DNA of 64,000 nt from Alphaproteobacteria bacterium (lineage in GTDB: Bacteria > Pseudomonadota > Alphaproteobacteria > Bin95). The position numbers and the translations under genes were made by a program. The stretch is from the NCBI GenBank assembly GCA_965205265.1, contig CBDBGH010000003.1, positions 832,001 to 896,000 on the forward strand, given 5' to 3'. The notes below the pieces were generated by a model, which was not told where the DNA came from, did not search any database, and saw only the letters and a list, made by a program, of their open reading frames with translations. Positions 820-63,583 of the stretch are shown in pieces (the first letter of the stretch is position 1; each line of letters begins with the position of its first letter).

Positions 820-1617
820 TCAGGCACCCCTGAAGACGGGCCGGCGCTTCTCCAGGAAAGCGTTGACGCCCTCAGCGTGATCGTCCGTCGTCATCGACAC
901 CGCCATATGCTCGCCCTCCCACTGCAATTGCTGCTCCATGGGCGTGTGGAAGGCGGTGTTGAACAACGACTTGGCCTGGGCATAGGCGACCGTCGGTCCG
1001 GCGGCCAGGCGTTCGGCGAGTGTCCGCGTCTCCGTCTCCAGATCGGCTGTCGGCACGACCCGGTTCACGATGCCGAGCTCCAGCGCGCGCTCCGCGCCGA
1101 AACGGTCGCCGAGCAGCGCCAGTTCCATGGCCTGCTTCATCCCGAGCGTCCGGGCGAGGAAATAGGAGGAGCCGCCGTCCGGGCTTGCGCCGATATGGCA
1201 ATAGGCGAGCGTGAAGAAGGCGTCGTCGGCGGCGATCGCCAGGCCGCAGGCCGCAACCAGCCCGAGGCCGAAGCCGGCGGCGGCGCCCTGGACGCTCGCG
1301 ATCACGGGCTTGCGCATCCGGCGGATGGCGAAGATCGGCAGATGGATCGCATGGATGCCCTCGACCACGACGCGCTTGCGGGTCTCCCTGTCGATTTCGA
1401 GGCGCTCCTGCATGGCGCGGATGTCGCCGCCCGCCATGAAATGCCCGCCCGCGCCGCGCAGCACCACGCAGCGCACGGACCCGTCATGCTCCAGGTCGCC
1501 GATGACGTCCCGCATGTCGATGCGCATTTGCGGACTGAGCGCGTTGCGCGCCTTCGGGTTGTTGAGCGTGACCCAGGCGATTCCCTTGTCGATCTCGCAA
1601 AGCACCGTGTCGCCCAT
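820..1617 (-). CDS. Enoyl-CoA hydratase/isomerase family protein
   Basis: TLNNPKARNAL, FMAGGDI, KPVIASVQGAAAGFG, EGVNAFLEKRRPVF crotonase motifs; start reset to MGDTVL. Confidence 0.9.
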   Translation of the reverse strand: MGDTVLCEIDKGIAWVTLNNPKARNALSPQMRIDMRDVIGDLEHDGSVRCVVLRGAGGHFMAGGDIRAMQERLEIDRETRKRVVVEGIHAIHLPIFAIRRMRKPVIASVQGAAAGFGLGLVAACGLAIAADDAFFTLAYCHIGASPDGGSSYFLARTLGMKQAMELALLGDRFGAERALELGIVNRVVPTADLETETRTLAERLAAGPTVAYAQAKSLFNTAFHTPMEQQLQWEGEHMAVSMTTDDHAEGVNAFLEKRRPVFRGA

Positions 1618-1684
1618 TTCGGCTTCTCCTTGTCTCGGGGCGGCCCAGATTGTAAGCGAGGCGGAACGCTTCGGGAAATCAGCG

Positions 1685-2887
1685 ATGCATCGGTACGGCG
1701 TGTTCGTCGTCATCGCCGGCGGCCTCGTGCTGGCATTCACCTTCGGGTCCCGCCAGTCCTTCGGCATCTACCTTGGCCCGATCAGTGCCGACCTCGGATG
1801 GTCGATTGCGGTCATGTCGTTCGCGCTCGCGGTCCAGAGCCTGTTCTGGGGGCTGAGCCAGCCTTTCTTCGGCTGGGTAGCCGACCGGTTCGGCACCGGC
1901 CGGACGCTGGTCATCGGCGCCGCGATCTATGCCGCCGGGCTGTTTTTCGCCAGCCGCATGGCAACCCCCGAAGGCGCTTATCTGTCGCTCGGTCTGCTTG
2001 TCGGCCTCGGCGCGGCCGGCTGCGGTATGCCCATCGTGATGACGGCCGTGGCGCGCACCTTTCCGAAGGAGCGCCATCCACTGGTCATGGCATTGACGGC
2101 AACCGGCGTTTCGCTCGGGCAGTTTTTCGTGACGCCGGCCGCGCCCGTCGTCATCGAGGCGTATGGATGGCGGGTCGGGCTGCTGGGCCTCATGGGCCTT
2201 GTCGGCCTTGTCGTGCTGCTGGCGATCGTGCTGCGGAGCCGGCCGGTGACAGCGGAGCGCGCCATGGAAGCGGAGCAATCGCTGCGCGAAGCGCTGACGG
2301 AGGCCTGGGGGCATTCCGGCTACCTGCTGCTGACCGCGGGCTTCTTCGTTTGCGGCTTCCATGTGCAGTTCATCGTGACGCATCTGCCGACTTTCATTGC
2401 GGAATGCGGACTGCCGGCCACCACCGGCGGCTGGGCAATCTCGGCAATCGGCATTTTCAACCTCATCGGCACGACGGCGGTGGGATTCCTCGGCAGCCGC
2501 TACCGCAAAAAATACCTGCTGAGCATCCTTTACGCCCTGCGCGCGCTCATGTTTGCGGTTTACGCCTTCACGCCCGTCACCACGACAACAACGCTCGTCT
2601 TCGCCGCCGGCCTCGGCTTGGCCTGGCTCAGCACGGTGCCGCTTACCTCGGCACTGGTCGGGCAGATTTTCGGCATCCGTTATCTGGGCACGCTGTTCGG
2701 CATCGTGTTTCTCAGCCACCAGGCCGGCTCGTTTCTCGGCTCCTGGCTCGGCGGCTATATTTTCGAGCTGACGGGCAGCTACGATACGGTCTGGCTCATC
2801 AATATCGCGCTTGCCCTGTTCGCCGCGATCATTCACCTGCCGATTGCCGACAAGCCTATCGAACGCCCGCTGGCCCAGCCGGCATAA
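1685..2887 (+). CDS. MFS transporter
   Basis: About 12 hydrophobic segments; GWVADRFG motif A and GFLGSRY repeat; start MHRYG. Confidence 0.9.
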   Translation: MHRYGVFVVIAGGLVLAFTFGSRQSFGIYLGPISADLGWSIAVMSFALAVQSLFWGLSQPFFGWVADRFGTGRTLVIGAAIYAAGLFFASRMATPEGAYLSLGLLVGLGAAGCGMPIVMTAVARTFPKERHPLVMALTATGVSLGQFFVTPAAPVVIEAYGWRVGLLGLMGLVGLVVLLAIVLRSRPVTAERAMEAEQSLREALTEAWGHSGYLLLTAGFFVCGFHVQFIVTHLPTFIAECGLPATTGGWAISAIGIFNLIGTTAVGFLGSRYRKKYLLSILYALRALMFAVYAFTPVTTTTTLVFAAGLGLAWLSTVPLTSALVGQIFGIRYLGTLFGIVFLSHQAGSFLGSWLGGYIFELTGSYDTVWLINIALALFAAIIHLPIADKPIERPLAQPA

Positions 2888-2959
2888 CAGGAAAGTGATT
2901 GGCGGCCGGGGCGTTTCCTGCGCATTTGTTGCGTCAAGATGTGCAAAGGAGTGCATGGC

Positions 2960-3928
2960 ATGCAGATCCTGAGACGACGGGGCTGGGAACTGCCCGAGAG
3001 CGAGGCGACGCCGGAGGCGGTATTCCGCGACAGGCGCCGCCTGATCCAGGCGGCGGCGCTGGGCAGCATCGCGGCCGCTGCGGGTCCGATAGCGGCGCGG
3101 GCGGCCACGACCGAAGCCGACCCGACCGCCGACCTCTATCCCGGGCCGCGCAACCCGGCCTATACCCTCGACCGGCCGCTGACGCCGGAGAAGGTCGCGA
3201 CGACCTACAACAACTTCTACGAGTTCGGCTCCAGCAAGGGCATCTGGAAGCGCGCGCGCGACAATCTGCGCATCCGCCCCTGGACCGTGCATCTCGACGG
3301 CGATGTGGAAAAGCCCATCGAGATCGGGTTCGACGACCTGGTGCGCAGGATGGGCGTCGAGGAGCGCCTCTACCGCCACCGCTGCGTCGAGGCCTGGGCG
3401 ATGGCGGTGCCGTGGTCCGGTTTCCCGATGGCGAAGCTGGTCGAGTTCGCGAAGCCGCTCGCCAAGGCGAAATATGTCCGCATGGAGACCTTCAACGACC
3501 CGGACATGGCATCGGGCCAGAAGGAGTTCTGGTATCCGTGGCCCTATGTCGAGGGCGTCACAATGGAAGAGGCCACCAACGACCTCGCTTTCATCGTCAC
3601 CGGACTTTACGGCAAGCCGGTGCCGGCCCAGAACGGCGCGCCGCTTCGTCTGGCGCTGCCGTGGAAATACGGCTTCAAGTCGATCAAGTCGATCGTCCGC
3701 TTCACCTTCACGGACGAGCGGCCCAAGAGCTTCTGGGAGAAGGTGCAAGGCCGCGAATACGGCTTCTGGGCCAATGTGAACCCGGAGGTGCCGCACCGGC
3801 GCTGGAGCCAGGCCACGGAACGCATGATCGGCACCGACGAGCGCCGCAAGACGCTGCTCTACAACGGCTATGGCGAGTTCGTGGCCCATCTCTACGAGGG
3901 AATGGACCAAAGGAAGCTCTTCTACTGA
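2960..3928 (+). CDS. msrP: Protein-methionine-sulfoxide reductase catalytic subunit MsrP (YedY)
   Basis: Tat-like RRRLI, YNNFYEFG, YRHRCVEAW (Mo-ligand Cys), QNGAPLRLALPWKYGFKSIKSI. Confidence 0.95.
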   Translation: MQILRRRGWELPESEATPEAVFRDRRRLIQAAALGSIAAAAGPIAARAATTEADPTADLYPGPRNPAYTLDRPLTPEKVATTYNNFYEFGSSKGIWKRARDNLRIRPWTVHLDGDVEKPIEIGFDDLVRRMGVEERLYRHRCVEAWAMAVPWSGFPMAKLVEFAKPLAKAKYVRMETFNDPDMASGQKEFWYPWPYVEGVTMEEATNDLAFIVTGLYGKPVPAQNGAPLRLALPWKYGFKSIKSIVRFTFTDERPKSFWEKVQGREYGFWANVNPEVPHRRWSQATERMIGTDERRKTLLYNGYGEFVAHLYEGMDQRKLFY

Positions 3929-5336: not shown

Positions 5337-6710
5337 TCAGAATTCGTAGTGCTCGTCAGTGAGCAGGGCGTCGAGTTCCGGGTCGTCTTCGCCCGGCACA
5401 TGGACGACGGTGTAGGTGAAATCGTCGCGGTCGAGCGGCATGGTGGCGTCGAGACCGAGCTTGTCCGAGACGCCGTTGTCCGCCGAGGGGTCGAGCTTCG
5501 AGCCCTGGGCACGCGGAACGACGAACAGGTCGCGCGCGGCCTGGAAGCGCGTTGCCACCGCCCATTCCACCGCCGTCGGGTCGTGGACATCGACATCCTC
5601 GTCCACCACCGTCACCTGCTTCACATCGGCATGGGCGGCGAAGGCGGCCATGATGACATTGCGCCCCTGGCCTTCCTGCGTCTTCCGCAGCTTCACATAG
5701 AGGTGGTAGCGGCACACCCCGCCGCGCGAGAGATGCACGTCGAGCACGGTCGGGCAGGTGCGCTGCAGATGCGCCGCGATGGTGGCCTCGCGCGGGATCG
5801 CGCCAAGCAGAAGATGCTCCATCGCCGCCGGCACGATGGTGTGGAAGATGGGTTTCGCACGCGTCGTGACCGCCTGCACCTCGATGGCCGGGTGCTTGCC
5901 GGCAGGCCCGTAATATTGCGGGAACTCTCCGAACGGCCCTTCGGTCTCGCGCACGCCCGGCAACAGGCGTCCCTCGATGACGATCTCGGCGCCGGCGGGC
6001 ACGCGCACCTCGTTGGTCGCGCATTTCACCACATCCAGCGGTGCGCCGTGCAGCGCGCCCGCGACCTCCAGCTCGTCATGGTCGACAGGCAGGATCGCCT
6101 GGCTGGCGAGCAGGGTCAGCGGGTCGACGCCGACCGCAACGGCTACATCGAGCGGTTCCTCGGCCGCTTCGGCGGCAGCGAAGAAATGATGCAGGTCCCG
6201 CGGCAGGATGAGAATGCCCATCCGCCTCGGCCCCGTGATCTGAAGGCGGTTGATCGAGACGTTCTGGATGCCGGTTGCCGGGTTGCGCGCGATGACGAGC
6301 CCGGCGGAGATATAGGCCCCGGCGTCGAGCGCATTGTGCTTCGGGATCGGAAGCGCGGCGGTGAGGTCGGGGCTGCGGTCGATGCGTTCCTGGCACGCGC
6401 CGTCGGCCACCTCCCGCCAGGGGAGCGGCTGCTCTGCCGCGGCCCGGAACCGGTCGAGCACCGCGCCGGGCTCGACGCCCATCGCCTCGGCAATCCAGCC
6501 CCGGTCCGAGACGAGGCCCGAGACGACCGGGATCTCGTGGCGGCGGCCGTCGAGGCCGAGCGGTTCGGGGAACAGCACTGCCTTGCGCGCGTCCCACCGC
6601 TTGGCGAGCGCGGCGAGGGTGAAGTCCAGCGAAACCCCCGGCCGGGCAACGGCGAGCCGGTCCGTGGCCTGCAGCCGGCCGAGCCAGGAACGGAGGGTGC
6701 GGTAGGTCAT
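5337..6710 (-). CDS. UbiD family prFMN-dependent (de)carboxylase
   Basis: AEIVIEG, EGPFGEFPQYYG, VVDEDVDVHDP, VEWAVATR, LDPS, KLGLDAT. Confidence 0.92.
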   Translation of the reverse strand: MTYRTLRSWLGRLQATDRLAVARPGVSLDFTLAALAKRWDARKAVLFPEPLGLDGRRHEIPVVSGLVSDRGWIAEAMGVEPGAVLDRFRAAAEQPLPWREVADGACQERIDRSPDLTAALPIPKHNALDAGAYISAGLVIARNPATGIQNVSINRLQITGPRRMGILILPRDLHHFFAAAEAAEEPLDVAVAVGVDPLTLLASQAILPVDHDELEVAGALHGAPLDVVKCATNEVRVPAGAEIVIEGRLLPGVRETEGPFGEFPQYYGPAGKHPAIEVQAVTTRAKPIFHTIVPAAMEHLLLGAIPREATIAAHLQRTCPTVLDVHLSRGGVCRYHLYVKLRKTQEGQGRNVIMAAFAAHADVKQVTVVDEDVDVHDPTAVEWAVATRFQAARDLFVVPRAQGSKLDPSADNGVSDKLGLDATMPLDRDDFTYTVVHVPGEDDPELDALLTDEHYEF

Positions 6711-6777
6711 GCGGAAAGGCGTCCTCCAGCCGGATTGCGCATGTTAGCCGACAACGGTTTCATTGCGCTCATACGGG

Positions 6778-7653
6778 TCAGCCCCGGCGCGCGGCGACGG
6801 CTTCGGCGAGCGCGACCGTCCGTTTCGCCATTTCGACATGCAGGTTCTCGATCAGCCGCCCGTCCACCACGACGACGCCCCGGCCGGCCGCCTCCGCTTC
6901 GCCGTGGGCGGCGATGATCCGCTCCGCCTCGGCAAGGGCGTCGGGACCGGGCGAAAAGGCATCATTGCAGGGACCGACCTGTTTCGGGTGAATCAGCGTC
7001 TTGCCGTCGAAACCGAGTTCGGCCCCCTGGCGGCAGGCGGCGGCGAATCCCTCGTCGTCGGCGAAGTCCAGATGGACCCCGTCCAGGACGGCGAGGCCGT
7101 GCGCGCGCGCCGCCAGCAGGCAGAGGCCGAGCCCGGTGATGAAGGGCAGCCGGTCCGGCGTGTGGGCGGCGCCAAGCTCCTTGGCGAGATCGGACGTGCC
7201 CATGACCAGGGCGGCGAGGCGGTGGCCGGCCCCGGCGATGGCGTCCGCGCGGAGCATGGCGAGCGGCGTTTCCATCATGGCCCAGACGGCCATGCCGGCA
7301 GGAGCGCCTTGCCGTTCGAGCAGGGCGGCGGCCTGGCGGACCGTCGCCTCGCTTTCGACCTTCGCCAGCAGCGCCGCATCCGCGCCCGAGCCGGCGATGG
7401 CCGCGAGGTCGTCATGCCCCCAGGGCGTATCGAGGCCGTTGGCGCGAATGACGATCTCGCGCGGGCCGTAGGCTCCCGAACGCGCCGCCGCCACCGCCTG
7501 CGCGCGGGCCGTTTCCTTTGCATCGGGGCTGACGGCGTCTTCGAGGTCGAAGATCAGCACGTCGGCCGGCAGCGTCTTCGCCTTCTCCAGCGCGCCGGCG
7601 CGGGAGGCCGGCATGTAGAGGGCGCTGCGGCGCGGCTTGACGGCTTGGGGCAT
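6778..7653 (-). CDS. CitE/HpcH-HpaI family CoA-ester lyase (malyl-CoA thioesterase-like)
   Basis: PRRSALYMPA, FDLEDAV, METP, GTSDL, LGFDGKTLIHPKQ. Confidence 0.9.
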   Translation of the reverse strand: MPQAVKPRRSALYMPASRAGALEKAKTLPADVLIFDLEDAVSPDAKETARAQAVAAARSGAYGPREIVIRANGLDTPWGHDDLAAIAGSGADAALLAKVESEATVRQAAALLERQGAPAGMAVWAMMETPLAMLRADAIAGAGHRLAALVMGTSDLAKELGAAHTPDRLPFITGLGLCLLAARAHGLAVLDGVHLDFADDEGFAAACRQGAELGFDGKTLIHPKQVGPCNDAFSPGPDALAEAERIIAAHGEAEAAGRGVVVVDGRLIENLHVEMAKRTVALAEAVAARRG

Positions 7654-7702
7654 GAAGGCGGATTCCTTGTGCGGGCGAGTCGTCGGCAACAGGGCGGACA
7701 TC

Positions 7703-8503
7703 ATGCACATTCTATCGATCCAGTCCTCGGTGGCGCGCGGTTTCGTCGGCAACCGCACGGCCGTCTTCGTGCTCCAGCGCCTCGGCCATCGGGTCACCTG
7801 CATCGATACGGTCGCCTATTCCAACCATCCCGCCCATGGCGGCTTCCGGGGCGAGGTGCATCCGGCGGAAAGCATCGACCGCATCGTGAGCGGGCTCGCG
7901 GAGCGCGGTTTCCTGGCGGACATCGATCTCGTCCTTTCCGGCTATCTGGGCTCGGCCGCCAATGCGGAAGCGGTGGCGCGCACGGTGGACCGCGTCGGCG
8001 CGCCCTACCTGCTCGACCCGGTGATGGGGGACGATCCGAAGGGACTGTTCGTGGCCCCCGACCTGCCCGATGCGATCCGGCGCGAACTGCTGCCGAGGGC
8101 CGCGGCCGCAACGCCCAACCGCTTCGAGCTTTCCCTGTTCGGGGCCCGCGAGGTGGACGGGCCGGCGCGAGCCGCCGAGCTTGCCGCCGGGCTCGGGCCC
8201 TCCCTCGTCGTGGCGACGAGCGTGCCGGCGGGGGAAGGGCGGATCGCCTGTGTCGGCGTATCGCAGGGTGAGGCCCGGCAGGCCGCAGTGCCGCGCATCG
8301 CGCATCCTGGTTACGGGGCGGGCGACCTGTTCGCGGCGTTGTTCGCGGCCCGGTGGCGGGAAGGCTGGGCGGAGGCCATGGCGCTCGCCGCCGGCACCGT
8401 CCACGCCACCATAGCCCGCTCGCCGGGGCGCGACCTCGATATCGTGGGAGCGCAGGCCCTTTTCGCCGACCCGCCGCCCCCGCCGCCGCTGGAGGCGGTC
8501 TGA
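7703..8503 (+). CDS. pdxY: Pyridoxal kinase
   Basis: ILSIQSSVARGFVGN, SNHP, LSGYLG, DPVMGD, TPNRFEL, GAGDLF. Confidence 0.88.
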   Translation: MHILSIQSSVARGFVGNRTAVFVLQRLGHRVTCIDTVAYSNHPAHGGFRGEVHPAESIDRIVSGLAERGFLADIDLVLSGYLGSAANAEAVARTVDRVGAPYLLDPVMGDDPKGLFVAPDLPDAIRRELLPRAAAATPNRFELSLFGAREVDGPARAAELAAGLGPSLVVATSVPAGEGRIACVGVSQGEARQAAVPRIAHPGYGAGDLFAALFAARWREGWAEAMALAAGTVHATIARSPGRDLDIVGAQALFADPPPPPPLEAV

Positions 8504-12840: not shown

Positions 12841-14160
12841 ATGCGGTTGAAGACCACAATCTGTGCGGCCGGCGCGGCCGCGCTTCTGGCGGCGACCGGA
12901 GCCTACGCCGACTCGCACGCCACGACCGTCACCATTGCGACCGTCAACAACGGCGACATGATCCGCATGCAGGGGCTGACGGAGGACTTCACGTCCCGGC
13001 ACCCCGATATCGAGCTCGAATGGGTGACGCTGGAAGAAAACGTTCTGCGCCAGCGCGTTACCCAGGACATCGCTGCGAAGGGCGGCCAGTTCGACGTTCT
13101 GACCATCGGCACCTACGAGGTTCCGATCTGGGGCAACAACGGCTGGCTCGTCTCGCTGAACGACCTGCCGGCGGAATGGGATGTCGACGACCTTCTGCCG
13201 GCCATCCGCTCCGGCCTGACCGTCGATGGCGAACTCTATGCCGCGCCGTTCTACGGCGAGAGCTCCATGGTGATGTACCGGACCGACCTGATGGAAAAGG
13301 CCGGCCTGGAGATGCCGGATGCGCCGACCTGGGCCTTCATCAAGGAAGCCGCGGCGGCGATGACCGACAAGGACGGGGAAATCTACGGCGTCTGCCTGCG
13401 CGGCAAGGCCGGCTGGGGCGAGAACATGGCGTTCCTGACCGCCACCTCGAATTCTTTCGGCGCGCGCTGGTTCGACGAGGACTGGAAGCCCCAGTTCGAC
13501 AGCGAGGCCTGGGCTAACACGCTCAACTTCTACATGGACCTTATGACCAACTACGGTCCTCCGGGCGCCTCGACCAACGGGTTCAATGAAAATCTGTCGC
13601 TGTTCCAGCAGGGCAAGTGCGGCATGTGGATCGACGCGACCGTAGCAGCCTCCTTCGTGACCAATCCGAAGGACTCGACCGTGGCCGACAGTGTCGGCTT
13701 CGCTCTGGCGCCGGACAATGGGCTCGGCAAGCGCGGAAACTGGCTCTGGGCGTGGTCGTTGGCGATCCCGGCGGGCTCGGACGCCACGGACGCGGCGAAA
13801 AAGTTCATCGCTTGGGCGACCGGCAAGGGCTACACTGAGCTGGTAGCGTCGAAGGAAGGCTGGGCCAACGTTCCGCCGGGCACGCGGACCTCGCTCTACG
13901 AGAACGCGGCCTATCTCGAGGCGGCACCGTTCGCCCGGATGACGCTAAATTCGATCAACGCGGCCGACCCCAAGCAGCCGACCGTCGATCCGGTGCCCTA
14001 TACCGGCGTGCAGTTTGTCGCGATCCCGGAATTTGCGGGAATCGCCACGCAGGTGGGGCAGGAGTTCTCGGCCGCGCTCGCCGGCCAGCAGACCGTCGCC
14101 GAGGCGCTCGAGAAGGCGCAGGCCCTGACGGCCGACGAAATGGAAGCCGCCGGCTACTAG
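12841..14160 (+). CDS. smoE: Polyol (sorbitol/mannitol) ABC transporter substrate-binding protein
   Basis: Signal peptide; TIATVNNGDMIRMQ, LEENVLRQRVT, APFYGESS, CLRGKAGWGENMA. Confidence 0.9.
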   Translation: MRLKTTICAAGAAALLAATGAYADSHATTVTIATVNNGDMIRMQGLTEDFTSRHPDIELEWVTLEENVLRQRVTQDIAAKGGQFDVLTIGTYEVPIWGNNGWLVSLNDLPAEWDVDDLLPAIRSGLTVDGELYAAPFYGESSMVMYRTDLMEKAGLEMPDAPTWAFIKEAAAAMTDKDGEIYGVCLRGKAGWGENMAFLTATSNSFGARWFDEDWKPQFDSEAWANTLNFYMDLMTNYGPPGASTNGFNENLSLFQQGKCGMWIDATVAASFVTNPKDSTVADSVGFALAPDNGLGKRGNWLWAWSLAIPAGSDATDAAKKFIAWATGKGYTELVASKEGWANVPPGTRTSLYENAAYLEAAPFARMTLNSINAADPKQPTVDPVPYTGVQFVAIPEFAGIATQVGQEFSAALAGQQTVAEALEKAQALTADEMEAAGY

Positions 14161-22997: not shown

Positions 22998-23810
22998 TCA
23001 GACCGGCCGGTCGCCCTCCAGGATGATGCGCCAGAGCGTCCGGGAATGCCGGCGGTCGTAATCGCCGTGGGCCCGGTGCATCGCGGCGCGGTTGTCGCAG
23101 ACCACCATGTCGCCCTGCCGCCAGCGATGGCGATAGACGATGCCGTCATGGATCGTGCGGTCCAGCAGGTCCTGCATGAGTGCGCGCGAGGCCTCGGGCG
23201 TCATGTCCTCGATGTAATGCGCCTTGGAGATGTGGAAATAGAGCGCCTTCGAGCCGTGCTCGGGATGGGTGCGCATCATGGGATGGACGGCGGGGATGTC
23301 GTATTTCTCGCGGTCCTCCTTCAGCGTCCGGTCCAGAAGGTGCCGGTCGAGCCGGTTGACGGTCCGCAGGCCCGCCAGGCGCTGCTGCTCTTCGGCATCG
23401 AGGCCGTCTCAGGCCGCGCGCATGTTCGCGAAGCTGGTGTCGCCGCCCTCCGGCGGGATTTCCACGCCGTAGAGGATCGTCGCCTTGGGTGGGCGCTCGC
23501 GGTTGGTGTGGTCGGTGTGCCACATGGCCGCCGGGCGTTGGCCGTTGCGGTGCCAGATGCGCCCGATCATCGGCTGGTCGGGCATGTTGTGCTGGCTGAA
23601 ATGCTGCGCCATCGGCGCGCCGAGCTGCGAGCAGGCGGCCAGATACTCGGCCGGCGTGAAGGTCTGGTCGCGGAACACCAGCACGATGTGCTCGGCAAGC
23701 GCGGCGGCCACCGCGGCCCGGTCCTCCGGAGACAATGTCTCCCGCAGGTCGAGTCCGCGGATTTCCGCGCCGAGCGAGGGATGCAGCGGTTGCGGCGCCG
23801 GGATGGTCAT
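22998..23810 (-). pseudogene. TauD/TfdA family dioxygenase interrupted by an in-frame TGA (23409-23411)
   Basis: ORFs 23409..23810 and 22998..23279 share a frame; LGAEIRGLDL, WHTD, GGDTSFAN, HPMMRTHP, WRQGDMVVCDNRAAMHR. Confidence 0.85.
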
Positions 23811-23843
23811 GCGCGGCTCCTCATGGCTCCGTCCCCCCGGTCC

Positions 23844-30094: not shown

Positions 30095-30961
30095 TCAGGC
30101 GTGGCCGGGCACGATGTGCCGGGCGGGAGACGGCCGGAAGGTCGCGCGCTTCAGCCAGCGGTTTTGCGCCGGGTCGAAATCGTCGCGCTTGTGCAGGAGG
30201 AAGCCGTTATCCCAGAGCACGGTGTCGCCGACCTGCCAGCGGTGCCGGTAGACGAAGCGCGGCTCGGTCGCATGCGCGATCAACCGGTCGAGCAGGGCGC
30301 GGCCCTCTTCCGCCTCCATGCCCTCGATACCGGACATGGTGCCGGGATCGAGATAGAGCGCCTTGCGGCCGGTCACGGGATGGGTGTGCACCAGCGGATG
30401 GGTGACATCCGGCGTGCGCCGGCGGATTTCCTCCTCGGCCATCTTGTCGATCTCGCCATAGCCGGCCACCCGCACGGCGTAGCTGAAGACGCCGCGCCTG
30501 CCGTCGATCCGGGCCTTCGTGTCGTCGTCGAGAGCCGCATAGGCGGCTTCCAGGTTCGCCCAGCTTGTCGGCGCCTGCCCGGCCCGGGACTCGACGCAGT
30601 AGAGCAGCGAGCCGGTCGCCGGATCGGTCATGTAGGACTGGTCGGAATGCCAGGCGAGCTCGCCCTGGCCGATGCCCCCGATGGTGTCGCCGCCGGGGCT
30701 GCGCATGTTGGAGATATAGGTGATCTCCGGCTGGTATTTCGACGCCCAGTCCTCGCGCACGATCAGCTCCAGCGCGCCGAACCAGGAGGCGGCCTCCGCA
30801 ATTTCGGCCTCGGAGAGCGCCTGCCGGCGGAACACCAGCACGCCGTGTTCGGCAAGCGCCAGATCGAGCGCTTCCCGCGTCTTCTCGTCCTGCGGCTCGT
30901 GAAGGGCGATGCCCTCCACGAGTCTCGCAAAGCCGCCGTCGGCAGGCGTGAGTTTCAGCAT
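30095..30961 (-). CDS. TauD/TfdA family dioxygenase
   Basis: HGVLVFRRQ, WHSDQS, HPLVHTHPVTGRKALY, WQVGDTVLWDN..LH. Confidence 0.9.
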   Translation of the reverse strand: MLKLTPADGGFARLVEGIALHEPQDEKTREALDLALAEHGVLVFRRQALSEAEIAEAASWFGALELIVREDWASKYQPEITYISNMRSPGGDTIGGIGQGELAWHSDQSYMTDPATGSLLYCVESRAGQAPTSWANLEAAYAALDDDTKARIDGRRGVFSYAVRVAGYGEIDKMAEEEIRRRTPDVTHPLVHTHPVTGRKALYLDPGTMSGIEGMEAEEGRALLDRLIAHATEPRFVYRHRWQVGDTVLWDNGFLLHKRDDFDPAQNRWLKRATFRPSPARHIVPGHA

Positions 30962-30966
30962 GGCCG

Positions 30967-31908
30967 TCAAAGCTCCTTCAACAGCGCCTCGATATCGTCC
31001 GGACCCTCCACCGCGACGCCCGACATCTCCCTGTCGATACGCCTGACCAGCCCGGAGAGCACCTTGCCCGAGCCCAGCTCGACCACCCGGTCCACGTCAT
31101 TGTCGCGCATGAACGTCATGCTTTCCCGCCAGCGGACCGTCGCCGTGACCTGGCGCACCAGCAGGTTGGGCAGGTCCGCGGCGCTCTCCACCGGCTGCGC
31201 CGTGACATTGGCGACCAGCGGCACCGAGGGATCCTGCATGGCGACGGAATCGAGCGCCTCCGCCATGGCGTCGGCGGCGGGCTGGAGCAGCGAGCAGTGG
31301 AAGGGGGCGCTCACATCCAGCAGGATCGCCCGGCGCGCGCCCCGCGCCTTCGCCAGCTCCACCGCGCGTTCGACGGCGGCGCGGTCGCCGCTCACCACGA
31401 CCTGGCCGGGGGCGTTGTCATTGGCCGGGTCGCAGACCTCGCCCTCCGCGGCTTCGCGCGCGACCTCCGCTACCTGCTCGAAATCGAGGCCGAGCAGCGC
31501 GGCCATGGCGCCGGCGCCGACGGGCACCGCGCCCTGCATCGCCTGTCCGCGCAATTTCAGAAGCCTGGCGGTATCGGCAAGCCGGAAGCCGCCGGCCGCC
31601 GTCAAGGCCGAATATTCTCCGAGCGAGTGCCCCGCCAGATAGAGACAGGAGGCGGGCAGCGAAACGCCGCCTTCGCGCTCCAGCACCCTGAACACCGCCA
31701 TGCTGTGCGCCATCAGCGCCGGCTGCGCGTTCTCGGTCAGGGTGAGTTCGTCGCCGGGGCCTTCGAACATCAGGCGCGAGAGGCTCTGCCCGAGGGCGTC
31801 ATCGACCTCCTCGAAAACCTCGCGCGCCGCCGCCGAGGCCTCCGCCAGCGCGCTGCCCATTCCGACCGCCTGCGATCCCTGTCCCGGAAAGACGAAAGCT
31901 CGTGCCAC
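30967..31908 (-). CDS. fabD: Malonyl-CoA-ACP transacylase
   Basis: FVFPGQGSQ, GHSLGEYSAL, VSAPFHC. Confidence 0.97.
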   Translation of the reverse strand: MARAFVFPGQGSQAVGMGSALAEASAAAREVFEEVDDALGQSLSRLMFEGPGDELTLTENAQPALMAHSMAVFRVLEREGGVSLPASCLYLAGHSLGEYSALTAAGGFRLADTARLLKLRGQAMQGAVPVGAGAMAALLGLDFEQVAEVAREAAEGEVCDPANDNAPGQVVVSGDRAAVERAVELAKARGARRAILLDVSAPFHCSLLQPAADAMAEALDSVAMQDPSVPLVANVTAQPVESAADLPNLLVRQVTATVRWRESMTFMRDNDVDRVVELGSGKVLSGLVRRIDREMSGVAVEGPDDIEALLKEL

Positions 31909-58692: not shown

Positions 58693-59541
58693 ATGACGCT
58701 GGAGATACGGCCTCTTTGCGACGCGCTGGGCGCAGAGGTCACGGGCCTCGACCTGACGCGGCCGCTGGACGAGGCGGACGCGGCGGCAGTGCGCGAGGCG
58801 TTCCTCGACCGCCACCTGCTCTGCTTCCGCTCCGAGCCGCTTTCGCCCGAGGATTTCCTGCGCGCCGCCCGCCTTTTCGGCGAGCCGCAATTGCAGCTCC
58901 TCCGCCATCGCCGCCACGGCGAGACGCCGGAGGTCTCGATGCTGGAGAGCACCTATAAACGGCCCGAGGACAAGCCGGACGACCTTGCCCTCGTGCGCCT
59001 CTCCGGCTGGCACACGGACGACAGCTATTTCGCCGCGCCCGCCAAGGCGACCATGCTGCAGTCGCTGGCGCTTCCGTCCTCCGGCGGCGAGACCCGCTTC
59101 TGCAACACCCGCCGGGCCTGGGAGGCGCTGGATGAGGACGTGAAGGCGCGGATCGAGGGCGCTGAGGCGGTCCACGGCTACGACACGCCGCGCGCGCCGG
59201 GCCGGGCCGAGACGCGCACGGCCGAGGAGGCCGCCGAGACGCCGGACGTGGTGCATCCGCTCGTCCGCACCCATGAGGACACAGGCAGGAAGGCGATCTA
59301 TTTCAACCCGAACCGCACCGACCGCGTGGTCGGGCTGGAGCGGGCGGAGAGCGACGCGCTGCTCGACGGCCTTTACGCGCATATGACCGCCGACCGCTTC
59401 CGCTACGACCACTCCTGGCGGCTGGGGGATATCCTGCTCTGGGACAATCGTTGCCTGGTGCATTCGGTGAACACGGACTTCCCCGTGGGCGAGGAGCGCC
59501 GGCACCAGCGCATCCTGCTGAAGGGAGGCAAACCGGTATGA
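58693..59541 (+). CDS. TauD/TfdA family dioxygenase
   Basis: LGAEVTGLDL, WHTDDS, HPLVRTH, WDNRCLVH. Confidence 0.92.
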   Translation: MTLEIRPLCDALGAEVTGLDLTRPLDEADAAAVREAFLDRHLLCFRSEPLSPEDFLRAARLFGEPQLQLLRHRRHGETPEVSMLESTYKRPEDKPDDLALVRLSGWHTDDSYFAAPAKATMLQSLALPSSGGETRFCNTRRAWEALDEDVKARIEGAEAVHGYDTPRAPGRAETRTAEEAAETPDVVHPLVRTHEDTGRKAIYFNPNRTDRVVGLERAESDALLDGLYAHMTADRFRYDHSWRLGDILLWDNRCLVHSVNTDFPVGEERRHQRILLKGGKPV

Positions 59542-60404
59542 GCGTACAATTCGAGCCGTTGTCGCCGGCTGTCGGCGCGGAAGTCAGGGGCGTGGACCCG
59601 CGCCGGCCTCTCGACGCGGGAACCGTGGCGGAGGTGGAGGCGGCGTTCGCGGAATACGGCGTGCTGCTGTTCCGCGACGCGCCGATGGACCCGGGCGAGC
59701 TCATGGCGTTCTCCCGCCATTTCGGCCCCCTCCAGCCGCATGTGCAGCGCGCCTACCACCATCCCGATGCGCCGGATGTTGTGGTGATGACCAACCAGCA
59801 TGCCGACGGCAGTTTCGACGAGACCGGCGCCCGGCGCGGCGCCATCGAGAATGTCCGCAACGGCTGGCATTCGGACCTCGCCTATGACGCGATACCCGCC
59901 AAGGCGACGCTCCTGCATGCGACGAACGTGCCGTCCTCGGGCGGCAATACCTGCTTCGCCAGCACCGCCGCCGCCTATGAGGCGCTGCCGGAGGAGACGC
60001 GGGAACGCGCGCGCGGGCTCGAATGCCTGTTCGTCTATGGCATGGACCAGCGCAACAAGAGCCTCGCCATCGCGGCGCAGAGCCTGGACAAGGAGGAGCG
60101 CGCTGTGCATCCGGTCATCAACGCCCATGCGGCGACCGGACGGGCGGCGATCTATGCCAATCCGATGTCCACCGTCGGCATTGTCGGCATGGAGCAGGAG
60201 GAAGCGGACCGGCTGCTGGACGAGTTGTTCGACATGCTGGACCGGCCGGAATTCCGCTGGGAGCATGAGTGGTCTGTCGGCGACACGCTGATGTGGGACA
60301 ATCGCGGCGGCGTCATGCATTGCGGACGCCTCGACTACCCCCGCAACGAACTCCGCCGCTTCCTGCGCACGACGGTCACCGGCGGCCCCATCCTGCCGGC
60401 CTGA
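59538..60404 (+). CDS. TauD/TfdA family dioxygenase
   Basis: VGAEVRGVD, WHSDLA, HPVINAH, WDNRGGVMH; ATGA overlap with the upstream paralogue. Confidence 0.92.
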   Translation: MSVQFEPLSPAVGAEVRGVDPRRPLDAGTVAEVEAAFAEYGVLLFRDAPMDPGELMAFSRHFGPLQPHVQRAYHHPDAPDVVVMTNQHADGSFDETGARRGAIENVRNGWHSDLAYDAIPAKATLLHATNVPSSGGNTCFASTAAAYEALPEETRERARGLECLFVYGMDQRNKSLAIAAQSLDKEERAVHPVINAHAATGRAAIYANPMSTVGIVGMEQEEADRLLDELFDMLDRPEFRWEHEWSVGDTLMWDNRGGVMHCGRLDYPRNELRRFLRTTVTGGPILPA

Positions 60405-60558
60405 GGCACCGGCACAAGGGACTTGCAATGACCTTCCGCACCAGGAAACGGGCGCCGGGCGTCTTCCCGGAAGCCCTGCCGGCATTGGCGGCTGCCGATC
60501 CGAAGGTAGGCCTGCGCGTTCGGATTCGGCCAGCCCGGCCGTTGTCTGGATAGCTGTA

Positions 60559-62325
60559 GTGAGCGACGCCGGGCCCGGGGAACGCGAAAGCGTACGCTAC
60601 CAGCCGGACGAAAGCCCGCCTCTGCCGATTGCGGCTGCCCTGGGCTCTCAGTATGCGATCCTCATCATCGCGCGGATCGTGGTCGTTCCCGTCGTGATCG
60701 TGCGGGCGGCCGGCGGCAGCGAGGCCGATCTTTCCTGGGTCCTGTTCGCCGCGATCGCGGTCTGCGGCGTCACCACCATGATGCAGGCGCTCAGATTCGG
60801 CCGCCTCGGATCCGGTTACGTCGCCGTGATGGGCACATCGCTTGCGGTGGTCGGCGTGGGCGTCACGGCGGTGGCCGAAGGCGGCCTGCCTCTGCTCGCT
60901 ACCCTGGTGCTCTTTGCATCTGCGGTTCCGCTGGCATTGTCCTTCCGGCTTACACTGTTTCGCAAGGTTCTCACTCCGACCGTCTCGGGCACGGTCATCA
61001 TGCTGATCCCGGCCACCCTGATGCCATCGGCCTTCGGGCTGTTGACGGATGTGCCGGCCGGCACGCCGGACGCGGCCGCCCCGCTATGCGCCGGTGCGGC
61101 GCTGCTCGTCATCGTTGTCACCACGCTGGAGGGAACCGCCCGGATGCGTCTCTGGTCTCCGGTGATCGGGGTGATCGCGGGTTGCCTGGTGGCCCTTTAT
61201 TTCGGCCTCTACGACGCGAACGCCGTCTTCGCGGCGTCGTGGATCGGCTTTCCGGTCGCTGGCTGGCCTGGCCTCGATCTGGACTTCGGGACGGCGTTCT
61301 GGGCGCTTCTTCCCGCATTCGTGCTGGTAGCCCTGATCGAGAGCGTGCAGACGATCAGTTGCGCCGTCGCCGTTCAGCGCGCCTCCTGGCGCCGGCCGCG
61401 CGCGGTGGATTTCCGGGCGGTCCAGGGCGCAGCGGCGACCGCCGGCGTCGGCAACATGCTGGCCGGCATCGCAGGCACGGTTCCGAACACCCTGCTTTCG
61501 ACCAGCGCGGCGGTGACGGACCTGACCGGCGCCGCCGCGCGGCGCATCGGCGTTGCCGCCGGTGCGGTGTTCATTGCCATGGCGTTCCTGCCCAAGGTTC
61601 GCGCTGCGGTTCTGGCGATACCGGGTCCGGTCGTCTCGGCCTATCTGTTCGTATTGATGACCGCGCTGTTCGTTCTGGGCATGAAGATGGTCGTCCAGGG
61701 CGGCGTCGATTACCGCAAGGGCCTGATCGCAGGCGCCGGGTTCTGGGCGGGCGTCGGCTTCCAATACGGCGCGATATTCCCGGAGTTCACCCGTGAGTTT
61801 GCGGGCGGCCTGCTGCAAAGCGGCGTCACCGCGGGCGGCCTCGTGGCCATTCTGTTGACCCTGTTCACGGAGGCGACGAAGTCCCGTCCGAGCCGGATAA
61901 GGACAGTTTGCGATATTGAGGCGTTGCCGGAGATCCGGGAATTCCTGGCCGCATTCGCCTCCCGCAGCGGCTGGGGCGAGGCGATGGCGCGCCGTCTCGA
62001 CGCCGTCGCGGAGGAGATGGTGCTGACGCTCCTCGACCGTAGCGAGGACCGCCGGGGCCCCGAGCGCCGGAGCCTGTCGCTGACGGCCCGCAGGGAGGAC
62101 GGCCGGGCGGTCCTGGAGATAGTCGCCGCTCCCGGGGACGGCAATCTCGAGGACCGCATTGCGCTGCTCGGCGAAGCCGAGACCGAAACGCCGACAGAGC
62201 GGGAGATATCGCTCCGGCTACTGCGGCATCTCGCGTCCTCGATTCGCCACGAACAGTATCGCGACGCCGAATTCGTGACCCTCCGCGTCGATGCTCCGGA
62301 CGGGCGTTCCGGCGCCCGGTCCTGA
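60559..62325 (+). CDS. NCS2 (xanthine/uracil permease-like) protein fused to a degenerate RsbW-like HATPase domain
   Basis: N-terminal ~440 aa: YQPDESPP, GRLGSGY, TPTVSGTVIMLI, FLPK, IPGPV; C-terminal ~135 aa with HATPase_c_2-like layout (LPEIREFL...EEMVLTL...LRLLRHLA). Confidence 0.8.
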   Translation: MSDAGPGERESVRYQPDESPPLPIAAALGSQYAILIIARIVVVPVVIVRAAGGSEADLSWVLFAAIAVCGVTTMMQALRFGRLGSGYVAVMGTSLAVVGVGVTAVAEGGLPLLATLVLFASAVPLALSFRLTLFRKVLTPTVSGTVIMLIPATLMPSAFGLLTDVPAGTPDAAAPLCAGAALLVIVVTTLEGTARMRLWSPVIGVIAGCLVALYFGLYDANAVFAASWIGFPVAGWPGLDLDFGTAFWALLPAFVLVALIESVQTISCAVAVQRASWRRPRAVDFRAVQGAAATAGVGNMLAGIAGTVPNTLLSTSAAVTDLTGAAARRIGVAAGAVFIAMAFLPKVRAAVLAIPGPVVSAYLFVLMTALFVLGMKMVVQGGVDYRKGLIAGAGFWAGVGFQYGAIFPEFTREFAGGLLQSGVTAGGLVAILLTLFTEATKSRPSRIRTVCDIEALPEIREFLAAFASRSGWGEAMARRLDAVAEEMVLTLLDRSEDRRGPERRSLSLTARREDGRAVLEIVAAPGDGNLEDRIALLGEAETETPTEREISLRLLRHLASSIRHEQYRDAEFVTLRVDAPDGRSGARS

Positions 62326-62350
62326 ACCGGGGGAGCGACTGTGTTGTCGG

Positions 62351-63583
<1,233 letters not shown>

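Follow-up and report, generated by a model that had tools for sequence, protein, structure and literature searches.

A permease of the NCS2 fold joined to an RsbW-like, predicted ATP-blind domain, and the widespread bacterial family to which it belongs

The stretch of DNA analysed here, which we call the window, comprises 64,000 nucleotides of contig CBDBGH010000003.1 (positions 832,001 to 896,000 of the forward strand) from an alphaproteobacterium of the GTDB group Bin95 (assembly GCA_965205265.1). Towards its end one open reading frame on the plus strand (60559..62325, GTG start, stop codon at 62323-62325) encodes a protein of 588 residues, in which a permease of the NCS2/NAT fold is followed by a domain resembling the anti-sigma kinase RsbW; there is hardly any doubt that this fusion is real and that its second part has the RsbW fold. 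The membrane domain, residues ~22-440 (60622..61878), has the 14-helix architecture of UraA and UapA, recognised both by Foldseek and by Pfam, which places Xan_ur_permease (PF00860) on residues 27-399 (E 3.2e-35, 122 bits, above the gathering cut-off of 27). Among the NCBIfam models NF037981 NCS2_1 is passed (46.8 against a cut-off of 40), while pbuX (163.5 against 414 bits) and ncs2 (142 against 292) stay far under their cut-offs. Four residues, 441-444 (61879..61890), link the last transmembrane helix to the first strand of the C-terminal tail, residues 445-578 (61891..62292); in the full-length AlphaFold model (predicted local distance difference test, pLDDT, 81.4; predicted TM-score, pTM, 0.76), from whose secondary structure this boundary is taken, the helix covers 422-440 and the strand 445-450. 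Family models see the tail faintly, with HATPase_c_2 on residues 453-566 under threshold for the whole protein in Pfam (E 0.035, 14.6 bits vs 27.4) and a weak NCBIfam match of RsbA_anti_sig to residues 443-566 (E 7.8e-4).

The preliminary description of this DNA, made from its letters alone, had read the gene as an NCS2-like region running in frame into ~135 residues laid out like RsbW or SpoIIAB, and had proposed structure prediction and a survey of homologues as checks. Pfam, the model, Foldseek, VIA-align and hhalign all bear this reading out. The model of the tail (pLDDT 76.8, pTM 0.73), which like the tail profile uses an alignment of 62 tail sequences, shows the order strand, two helices, two strands, helix, helix, two strands, and adopts the Bergerat/GHKL fold in its RsbW/SpoIIAB branch. 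Foldseek against the PDB returns UsfX first (8ih8_C, E 2.4e-6), then RsbW (6m36, 6m37) and SpoIIAB (1tid, 1th8, 1l0o), and the matches listed above E 1e-3 (18 matches overall) are anti-sigma kinases. When the structures are superposed with VIA-align, RsbW 6m37_C reaches Z 14.3 (113 of 115 residues, root-mean-square deviation, rmsd, 2.3 Å), UsfX 13.7, the RsbW domain of Rv1364c 13.5, SpoIIAB 12.5-12.9 and SiaB 10.6, and after a gap follow the catalytic and ATP-binding (CA) domains of histidine kinases, at Z ≤6.9. The tail shares with RsbW, SpoIIAB and UsfX (HATPase_c_2, PF13581) both fold and size (Z 12.0-14.3, 105-120 residues aligned, rmsd 2.3-3.4 Å), and homology to them is detectable. HATPase_c_2 is matched at E ≤1 by 32 of the 62 tails (best E 1.1e-6), the window's tail taken alone scoring 18.3 bits, under the Pfam gathering cut-off of 27.4; plain BLAST of that tail against stand-alone RsbW-type proteins encoded near family members gives colinear matches, six of seven at E 2e-6 to 4e-4 and the seventh at E 0.62; and hhalign against 11 genuine stand-alone RsbW-type kinases aligns 119 columns with a probability of 91.7% (E 7.8e-7). 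A look-up in a protein atlas put 19 of the 30 nearest clusters within the set that bears HATPase_c_2. A sequence search of the PDB with the tail profile gave no significant match, the best being an engineered repeat protein at E 0.2, so that the relatives of the tail in the PDB are recognised by fold comparison only.

What distinguishes the tail from these kinases, besides being fused to a transporter and not free-standing, is that its N, G1 and G2 boxes have all been replaced. In the hhalign alignment the asparagine of the N box, which serves Mg-ATP, corresponds to Thr490 at the end of the remnant 'EEMVLT' (residues 485-490, 62011..62028); the adenine-binding aspartate of the G1 'DDG' corresponds to Ala523, within residues 520-532 (62116..62154); and the G2 'GGLG' corresponds to R548-E549-I550-S551, where profile alignment sets 'REISLR' of the window (residues 548-553, 62200..62217) against 'GGLGIH'. 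The eroded boxes pointed out in the preliminary description, including the exchange of the N-box Asn for Thr and the missing DxG, are a property of the whole family, and the 'EISL' which it placed at the GxGL position is the same stretch shifted by one register. In 139 sequences Asn never appears at position 490, which is occupied by Thr in 113, Ser in 12 and some other residue in 14, nor does Asp at position 523, where Ala (109 sequences) and Val (24) prevail. Other positions in the same region have hardly moved: E485, E486, N529, S551 and H564 are invariant in 139 of 139, and E520, D532 (137 of 139), L552 (138 of 139) and R553 (137 of 139) are nearly so. The mean frequency of the commonest residue, over 139 full-length sequences, is 0.69 in the tail and 0.75 in the membrane domain. 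A tail that stays constrained after its ATP boxes have gone points to purifying selection for something other than the use of ATP. Kinase activity is not expected of a domain with all three boxes replaced, and judging from its sequence the tail is very probably blind to ATP. We infer that it is a pseudo-kinase retained for binding and not for catalysis, and a role as a protein-interaction or regulatory module is probable.

The family is large and the fusion is its normal state. The 120 best hits listed in the homologue search comprise 113 proteins of 575-598 residues, which align over 97-100% of the query with identities as low as 59%, and seven shorter ones of 464-543 residues. In species-representative genomes the full-length fusion stands in a single frame at 53 of 60 loci; five of the other seven are cut by contig ends, one has a late start (L022) and one is split over two frames (L041). 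The last, a Bryobacterales permease at 5899-7742 (+) of its locus, runs over two overlapping frames, the cause being either a frameshift or a fault of assembly. Searching metagenomes with a profile of the tail alone gave 79 loci, of which 73 carry the full-length fusion. The survey suggested in the preliminary description thus finds the fusion kept in homologues, which speaks against a read-through. The same profile, run against 1.84 billion cluster representatives, matched 729 at E ≤1e-3; tightening the threshold to 1e-10 leaves 521 of them, and to 1e-30, 142. The best 150 of the 729 consist of 30 full-length fusions (tail at ~440-585), 71 fragments with transmembrane segments and 49 pieces of the C-terminal part, which mostly begin with an internal methionine of the fusion (~433, 459, 476) and are read as gene fragments from short contigs. 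Among these 150 no other architecture for the tail was found and no clear stand-alone tail was seen, a few divergent pieces (31-35% identity) having been set aside.

By their record titles the loci from genomes belong to Alphaproteobacteria (Defluviicoccus, Rhodospirillaceae) and Gammaproteobacteria, and further to Nitrospinota, Nitrospira, Spirochaetia, Binatia, Gemmatimonadota (Palauibacter), Rhodothermales, Acidimicrobiia, Thermodesulfobacteriota and Bryobacterales. The family spans more than 10 phyla and hundreds of bacteria, mostly associated with sponges; many of the records are labelled as sponge-derived, several of them in their titles. A large, habitat-linked family, probably one that includes SupE (see below), had thus been missed in the preliminary description. 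Its spread across phyla in one habitat suggests a trait that is selected by life inside sponges.

The membrane domain also departs from its characterised relatives. Foldseek with the whole model finds UapA (5i6c, E 1.8e-16, TM-score 0.78), UraA (8omz, TM-score 0.84) and SVCT1, with the SLC26/SulP carriers prestin, SLC26A6, SLC26Dg and BicA as a second tier of matches, in agreement with the structural kinship to SLC26/SulP stated in the preliminary description. With the NCS2/NAT carriers (UapA, UraA, XanQ/PbuX, SVCT1; PF00860, TC 2.A.40) the protein has in common the Pfam family, the 14-helix elevator fold, Q31 and T323. In NAT carriers a Gln-His pair in transmembrane helix 1 (TM1) and a TM8 glutamate (UapA E356, UraA E241) with an Asp/His four residues further on have roles in the substrate site, and TM10 carries the signature (Q/E/P)-N-x-G-x4-T-(R/K/G). 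Alignment to UapA shows what has become of these in the window. The TM1 pair is Q31-Y32 (60649..60654; 'LGLQHA' of UapA corresponds to 'LGSQYA'), as the preliminary description had it. The TM8 stretch is 'IESVQTISC' (residues 260-268, 61336..61362), with Q264 and C268, so that neither the NAT Gln-His pair nor the Glu...Asp/His pair is present and the canonical E...GD is gone from this copy. The TM10 segment TLLSTSAAVTDLTG (residues 311-324, 61489..61530) stands at the position of the signature, UapA having FAQNNGVIALTR, or TTFAQNNGVIALTR, where the window has LLSTSAAVTDLTG (AQNNGVIALTR vs STSAAVTDLTG), which confirms the suspected loss of (Q/E)NxG. Across the family the TM10 consensus is TYSTSVSVTELTG (S-T-S-V-S-V-T-E-L-T-G), which keeps only the distal T and G of the signature (T323 in 138 and G324 in 131 of 139 members). 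Q31 is invariant in 139 sequences, and it is followed by Leu in 94, Tyr in 20, Phe in 14, Ile in 10 and Ser in one of them, never by His. The loss of the TM1 His and of the TM10 (Q/E)-N-x-G thus sets the whole family apart from NCS2/NAT carriers, as do the 135-residue cytoplasmic domain, absent from the characterised members, and an identity of only 28% to the nearest unfused relatives in sister genera; the window's subtype in addition has no TM8 E...GD.

TM8 divides the family into three subtypes, each of which groups on a FastTree tree (midpoint-rooted, supports disregarded). The E-type keeps the canonical 'E-T-x-G-D', and E264 and D268 occur jointly in 85 of the 139 relatives; the R-type ('...R-T-x-S-S') comprises 24 sequences; and the Q-type comprises the window's protein, Nitrospira proteins and near relatives with 'IESVQTISN' in Alphaproteobacteria, Binatia and Thermodesulfobacteriota, the subtype motif of the window, 'IESVQTIS', being found in 11 of 139. 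Two or three paralogues of differing TM8 subtype frequently stand in tandem at family loci, among them L039, L040, L042, L044, L024 and L079 in Binatia and relatives, and L021, L035, L049 and L140. Such tandems of different subtype lead us to read the family as real carriers with diverging, non-nucleobase substrates, and judged by these motifs the substrate would be a solute other than a classical nucleobase. The automatic labels 'xanthine permease' or 'uracil permease' are misleading for proteins from which the nucleobase-binding motifs have gone. A 'xanP xanthine permease' is given as enriched in marine Gemmatimonadota in the accessible part of one study (PMC11596202), and it may or may not belong to the fusion family.

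How did the window's copy come to be where it is? Of 16 other genomes in the genus 15 have the fusion, none of them with a protein more than 57% identical to the window's copy, and it is present in none of 8 genomes from two sister genera, two of which have only an unfused NCS2 gene (28% identity). Close relatives lie elsewhere, the window's copy being 81% identical to a protein of one other alphaproteobacterial record and 66-69% to proteins in records titled Binatia, Bryobacterales and Thermodesulfobacteriota. The same genome has a second intact paralogue of 580 residues and 55% identity (contig 3 1561117-1562871, minus strand; 1519-3261 of locus L062). It is this second paralogue, rather than the window's copy, which resembles those of other species in the genus; a TAG at first taken as lying in frame inside it is its own stop codon. 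An IS110-family transposase gene (DEDD_Tnp_IS110 and Transposase_20; 62351-63385, minus strand) ends 26 bases past the stop codon of the permease, and the GC skew shifts in the same stretch. The transposase gene, the skew shift and the absence of a close orthologue in the genus together suggest that the permease arrived on or beside mobile DNA, and we take the window's copy to be a surplus paralogue gained by lateral transfer. Pieces 95-99% identical to this region occur in a DNA run with the label 'sponge metagenome', and one of them bridges the junction between the permease and the TauD gene before it.

SupE is reportedly the 'permease' of the sponge-symbiont ubiquitous polyketide synthase (sup) cluster (Fieseler et al. 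2007, as cited in PMC3908369). Several members of our family have just such surroundings. Sup-type polyketide synthases (PKS) of the ketosynthase-acyltransferase (KS-AT) kind, free acyl carrier proteins (ACPs) and phosphopantetheinyl transferases (PPTases) are encoded beside family members in 20 of 139 loci, and 17 of the 24 R-type sequences stand beside a Sup-type ketosynthase. In the Rhodothermales loci and in L140, R-type and E-type copies flank genes for PKS, ACP, PPTase and the ammonium transporter Amt. A fosmid table in the available portion of PMC3908369 lists a 'Permease' of 557 residues with SupE as its best match, flanked by two genes for an 'anti-anti-sigma regulatory factor', and in that portion SupE is called only 'permease' and no tail is mentioned. 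The family resembles SupE in the sup-type neighbourhood of some members and in a length near that of this 557-residue protein (so far as the table in that portion of the paper gives it). It probably includes SupE, an assignment made from genomic context and from the accessible part of that paper rather than from sequence comparison. The window's own copy differs in being Q-type and in having no PKS gene in the window, where no KS, PPTase or Amt homologue was found. If the assignment holds, the present model is a first structural handle on SupE-type permeases, companions of the most abundant polyketide synthases of sponge microbiomes. The preliminary description knew of no characterised NCS2-RsbW fusion, and we likewise found no published description in the literature searched, which leaves most subscription journals outside it.

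We looked to the surroundings of the 139 loci for indications of function. The neighbour scan against Pfam (E ≤1e-5) covered 249 proteins, namely 247 of the 251 open reading frames within two genes of a permease (four long ones were dropped) and two stand-alone RsbW-like ones, and genes for RsbW, PP2C and STAS proteins in the flanks were flagged with local hidden Markov models built from sequences of this analysis. Each neighbour family is limited to at most 8 of 60 loci, which yields neither a conserved operon partner nor a consistent hint as to the substrate. The contexts are specific to lineages (LysR/EamA, MurJ/SDR, TRAP transporters, amidohydrolases, Amt/PKS/PPTase). Eleven of the 139 loci, one being a permease fragment (L059), have RsbW, PP2C or STAS genes nearby; stand-alone RsbW-type and receiver-PP2C genes are found in the examined flanks of 10 loci and STAS genes in those of 5. 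The order of the genes differs among them. The Nitrospinota-like arrangement has a response regulator, a response regulator joined to PP2C, RsbW, Peripla_BP_6 and a HAMP kinase, with STAS farther on, and in Nitrospira (L031, L142) RsbW, STAS, a response regulator-PP2C, Peripla_BP_6 and a HAMP kinase directly follow the permease. At L140 there are a Sup-type PKS, two permeases, Peripla_BP_6, STAS, GPP34, Amt, STAS and glutamine synthetase III.

In five genomes with such loci (2.5-4.1 Mb) the strong small HATPase_c_2 genes number 1, 1, 2, 1 and 1, and the neighbour of the permease is the best in each. Since the adjacent RsbW gene is the sole strong small one or one of two, chance adjacency within a few kilobases is unlikely, as far as five kin genomes and two arrangements can tell. 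The flanks of the L081 and L142 clusters hold differing housekeeping genes, and the permease is their sole neighbour in common; no sigma factor, DNA-binding protein or cyclase is encoded within ~10 kb of either cluster. Every one of the 11 fusion-bearing genomes examined has small RsbW-type genes, and STAS genes turned up in all 6 that were searched for them. A co-fold prediction gave weak support to the link. When the tail of L031 is co-folded with the neighbouring STAS protein the score is 0.41 (runs 0.47, 0.38, 0.41) and the best of 3 controls 0.00, with alignments of our own and a rough calibration; contacts coincide among the runs to at least 62%, and the partner has a pLDDT of at least 87. 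The mark applied here is reached by 58 of 80 solved complexes and by 2 of 110 mismatched pairs.

What does a dead kinase do beneath a carrier then? We propose that the protein is a regulated secondary carrier, whose pseudo-kinase tail couples transport to a partner-switch protein, and give this reading a probability of roughly 45%. The tail would sit right below the gate domain, in the position that STAS has in SLC26/SulP carriers, and would couple transport to a cytoplasmic partner. The most likely candidate for that partner would be a small STAS protein, or else a stand-alone RsbW-type kinase, of a partner-switching module, and that the partner comes from this pair of families at all is a tentative proposition. 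An external signal might pass from a binding protein to a histidine kinase and on to the receiver-PP2C phosphatase, which would set the phosphorylation state of the STAS protein; by docking on the tail, which could bind but not phosphorylate it, this protein would then act as the switch of the carrier. The window's genome does encode such proteins, away from the permease. The fullest version, and a decidedly tentative one, joins these steps with the distribution of the family: a Peripla-type binding protein and HAMP kinase would act through receiver-PP2C on STAS, which once dephosphorylated would leave the RsbW kinase, dock on the tail and gate the NCS2-fold carrier, all independently of sigma factors, in a system that would have spread laterally among sponge symbionts of more than 10 phyla and would control whether a solute that derives from the host or from a polyketide is taken up or exported. 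In the adjacent modules the sensor parts are already present and there is no other output, which favours a regulated carrier over a sensing transceptor.

Several observations weigh against this proposal. No partner-switch gene lies in the examined flanks of 128 of the 139 loci, and neither a STAS, a PP2C nor a stand-alone RsbW gene was found in the 64-kb window, whose genome has two RsbW-like genes and single-domain STAS genes only as scattered singletons at least 134 kb from the permease. The loci that do adjoin such genes are related to one another and represent some three independent arrangements, perhaps fewer ancestral events. Neighbouring genes were called by a simple reading-frame heuristic, by which small genes may be missed. 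Genes for STAS and RsbW proteins occur in 9-12 of 14 well-known control genomes, and being so common in bacteria their co-occurrence with the fusion at the level of genomes does not discriminate. As to the co-fold, at scores of 0.60 or lower the mark is reached by only 7 of the 80 solved complexes and by both of the passing mismatches; moreover the RsbW-RsbV, SpoIIAB-SpoIIAA and UsfX-RsfB complexes have been solved, and the score may reflect likeness to these and not binding. The lid, which in true kinases helps to hold the STAS partner, is remodelled in the tail and poorly modelled, residues 527-551, including 538-551 around the G2 remnant, being the least confident part. In RNA runs X19 and X20, finally, the TauD gene upstream is covered and the permease is represented only by pieces of 41-56 bases with 1-5 differences, which may stem from relatives, and we make no claim of transcription for it. 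The partner-switching role which the preliminary description gave to the tail therefore stands on circumstantial grounds, namely the 11 loci, the sole or nearly sole RsbW gene in five genomes and the co-fold score, with the 128 other loci and the window itself on the opposite side.

How would a regulated carrier of this kind compare with known systems? Partner switching by RsbW, RsbV and RsbU kin is known mainly for freeing and trapping sigma factors, and the output of the known sigma-independent switches is a soluble enzyme or regulator. Similar in composition are systems of the SiaB-SiaC type. The SiaB kinase of Pseudomonas aeruginosa (PDB 6kko) matches the tail structurally (Z 10.6) and the modules adjacent to our permeases likewise consist of an RsbW-type kinase, STAS and receiver-PP2C with no sigma factor, but the proposed output would here be a pseudo-kinase domain inside a transporter. 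The SLC26/SulP carriers have a related membrane fold and, right after the last helix, a fused domain from the partner-switching toolkit, which is STAS; the present fusion, in contrast, carries the kinase or anti-sigma fold, the other half of the pair, on an NCS2 membrane domain, and the functional analogy would hold only in so far as the two halves act alike. If the proposal is true, the family is a mirror image of SLC26-STAS and the first partner switch with its target built into a transporter. The STAS domain of SLC26/SulP has long hinted that the partner-switch toolkit acts on transport, and with the complementary half found on NCS2 this idea becomes directly testable. A further parallel is offered by the sensors CbrA and CrbS, described in the available part of PMC9100948 as SLC5/STAC histidine kinases in which a solute-carrier domain is joined to an active histidine kinase. 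In them too a carrier domain is covalently linked to a GHKL-type signalling domain, while the window's tail is RsbW-type and predicted dead, and the carrier fold is a different one.

The main competitor of the regulated carrier with an outside partner, somewhat unlikely in our estimate, is that the tail is self-contained: it would dimerise under the dimeric NCS2 domain and stabilise or gate the carrier as STAS does in SLC26/SulP. Both NCS2 carriers and RsbW/SpoIIAB are homodimers. On the model the linker of four residues would oblige the tail to pack against the gate domain, and after the NCS2 structures it is SLC26 carriers that the membrane domain matches best. The tail is also always present whatever the genomic context, and the 128 loci without partner-switch neighbours are easily accommodated. 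Such a domain leaves unexplained, however, the near-invariant polar cluster at the former nucleotide pocket and the sole small RsbW-type gene found beside the permease in several genomes.

The other alternatives retain an outward function for the tail and do less well. A transceptor, as favoured in the preliminary description, would use the membrane domain to sense a solute and the tail to sequester or release a STAS or RsbW protein, and so control gene expression. This can draw on the same adjacency and co-fold observations as the regulated carrier, and the absence from the window's Q-type copy of the TM8 acidic residues and of the TM10 Gln/Asn, with which NAT carriers bind substrate and protons, could mean sensing without transport. 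But the adjacent modules have input parts of their own (Peripla_BP_6, HAMP kinase, receiver-PP2C) and the permease is their sole recognisable output; the tandem paralogues of differing subtype resemble diversifying transporters, and the canonical E...GD of TM8 survives in 85 of 139 members. The carrier as sensor is thus not specifically supported and we regard it as improbable. That a metabolite or second messenger occupies the tail's remodelled pocket, as an allosteric control of the carrier, is more improbable still: E485, E486, E520, N529, D532, S551, R553 and H564 do lie in the segments that form the ATP pocket of true kinases, but no search suggested a ligand and the lid is modelled with low confidence. 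A membrane-anchored anti-sigma factor, which by analogy would sequester an alternative sigma factor and free it on substrate binding, is very improbable, for although the closest structures (RsbW, SpoIIAB, UsfX) are anti-sigma factors and one matched entry is a complex of SpoIIAB with sigma F, no sigma-factor family is represented among the 249 and 41 further neighbour proteins scanned, a point that also separates the tail from RsbW, SpoIIAB and UsfX, and the more than 10 phyla concerned have very different sigma repertoires. A chance read-through, frameshift or assembly join of a permease with a small gene is ruled out for practical purposes by the single frame kept in 53 of 60 loci from genomes and 73 of 79 from metagenomes, and by the presence of the fusion in 15 of 16 other members of the genus.

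Directly upstream of the permease gene in the window stand two tandem genes for TauD/TfdA-family dioxygenases, 58693-59541 (+) and 59538-60404 (+), which overlap in an ATGA at 59538-59541. TauD genes are near only 3 of 139 other permease loci. Contigs from two RNA libraries that carry relatives of the second TauD gene diverge from the window right after its stop codon (~60407), and apparently the permease is not downstream of TauD in those relatives. The window has two or three further TauD-family reading frames, at 30098-31096 (-) and 23001-23843 (-), the latter split over two frames and perhaps a pseudogene. A scan of 60200-62600 found no promoter-like site and five terminator-like sites, which are uninformative, all lying inside the coding region with 2.0 expected by chance.

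A few features of other loci deserve mention. In the Nitrospinota-like loci (L004, L006, L008, L009, L010, L018, L022) a DUF3105 gene always lies 3' of the permease on the opposite strand, and the neighbourhood at L008 (7760-8503, minus strand) also includes a gene for a eukaryotic-type carbonic anhydrase. The GPP34 gene of L140, of the Golgi phosphoprotein 3 family (12853-13530, plus strand), stands between the STAS and ammonium transporter genes downstream of the permeases. One single-domain STAS gene of the window's genome (L064; contig 3 5282568-5285852) is found between an ankyrin-repeat gene and an IS605 OrfB/TnpB-like gene. Genes of toxin-antitoxin type adjoin the permease at several loci, namely HigB with a helix-turn-helix protein (L003, L011), HipA (L048, L050, L052) and Fic (L048), and fit variable, mobile neighbourhoods.

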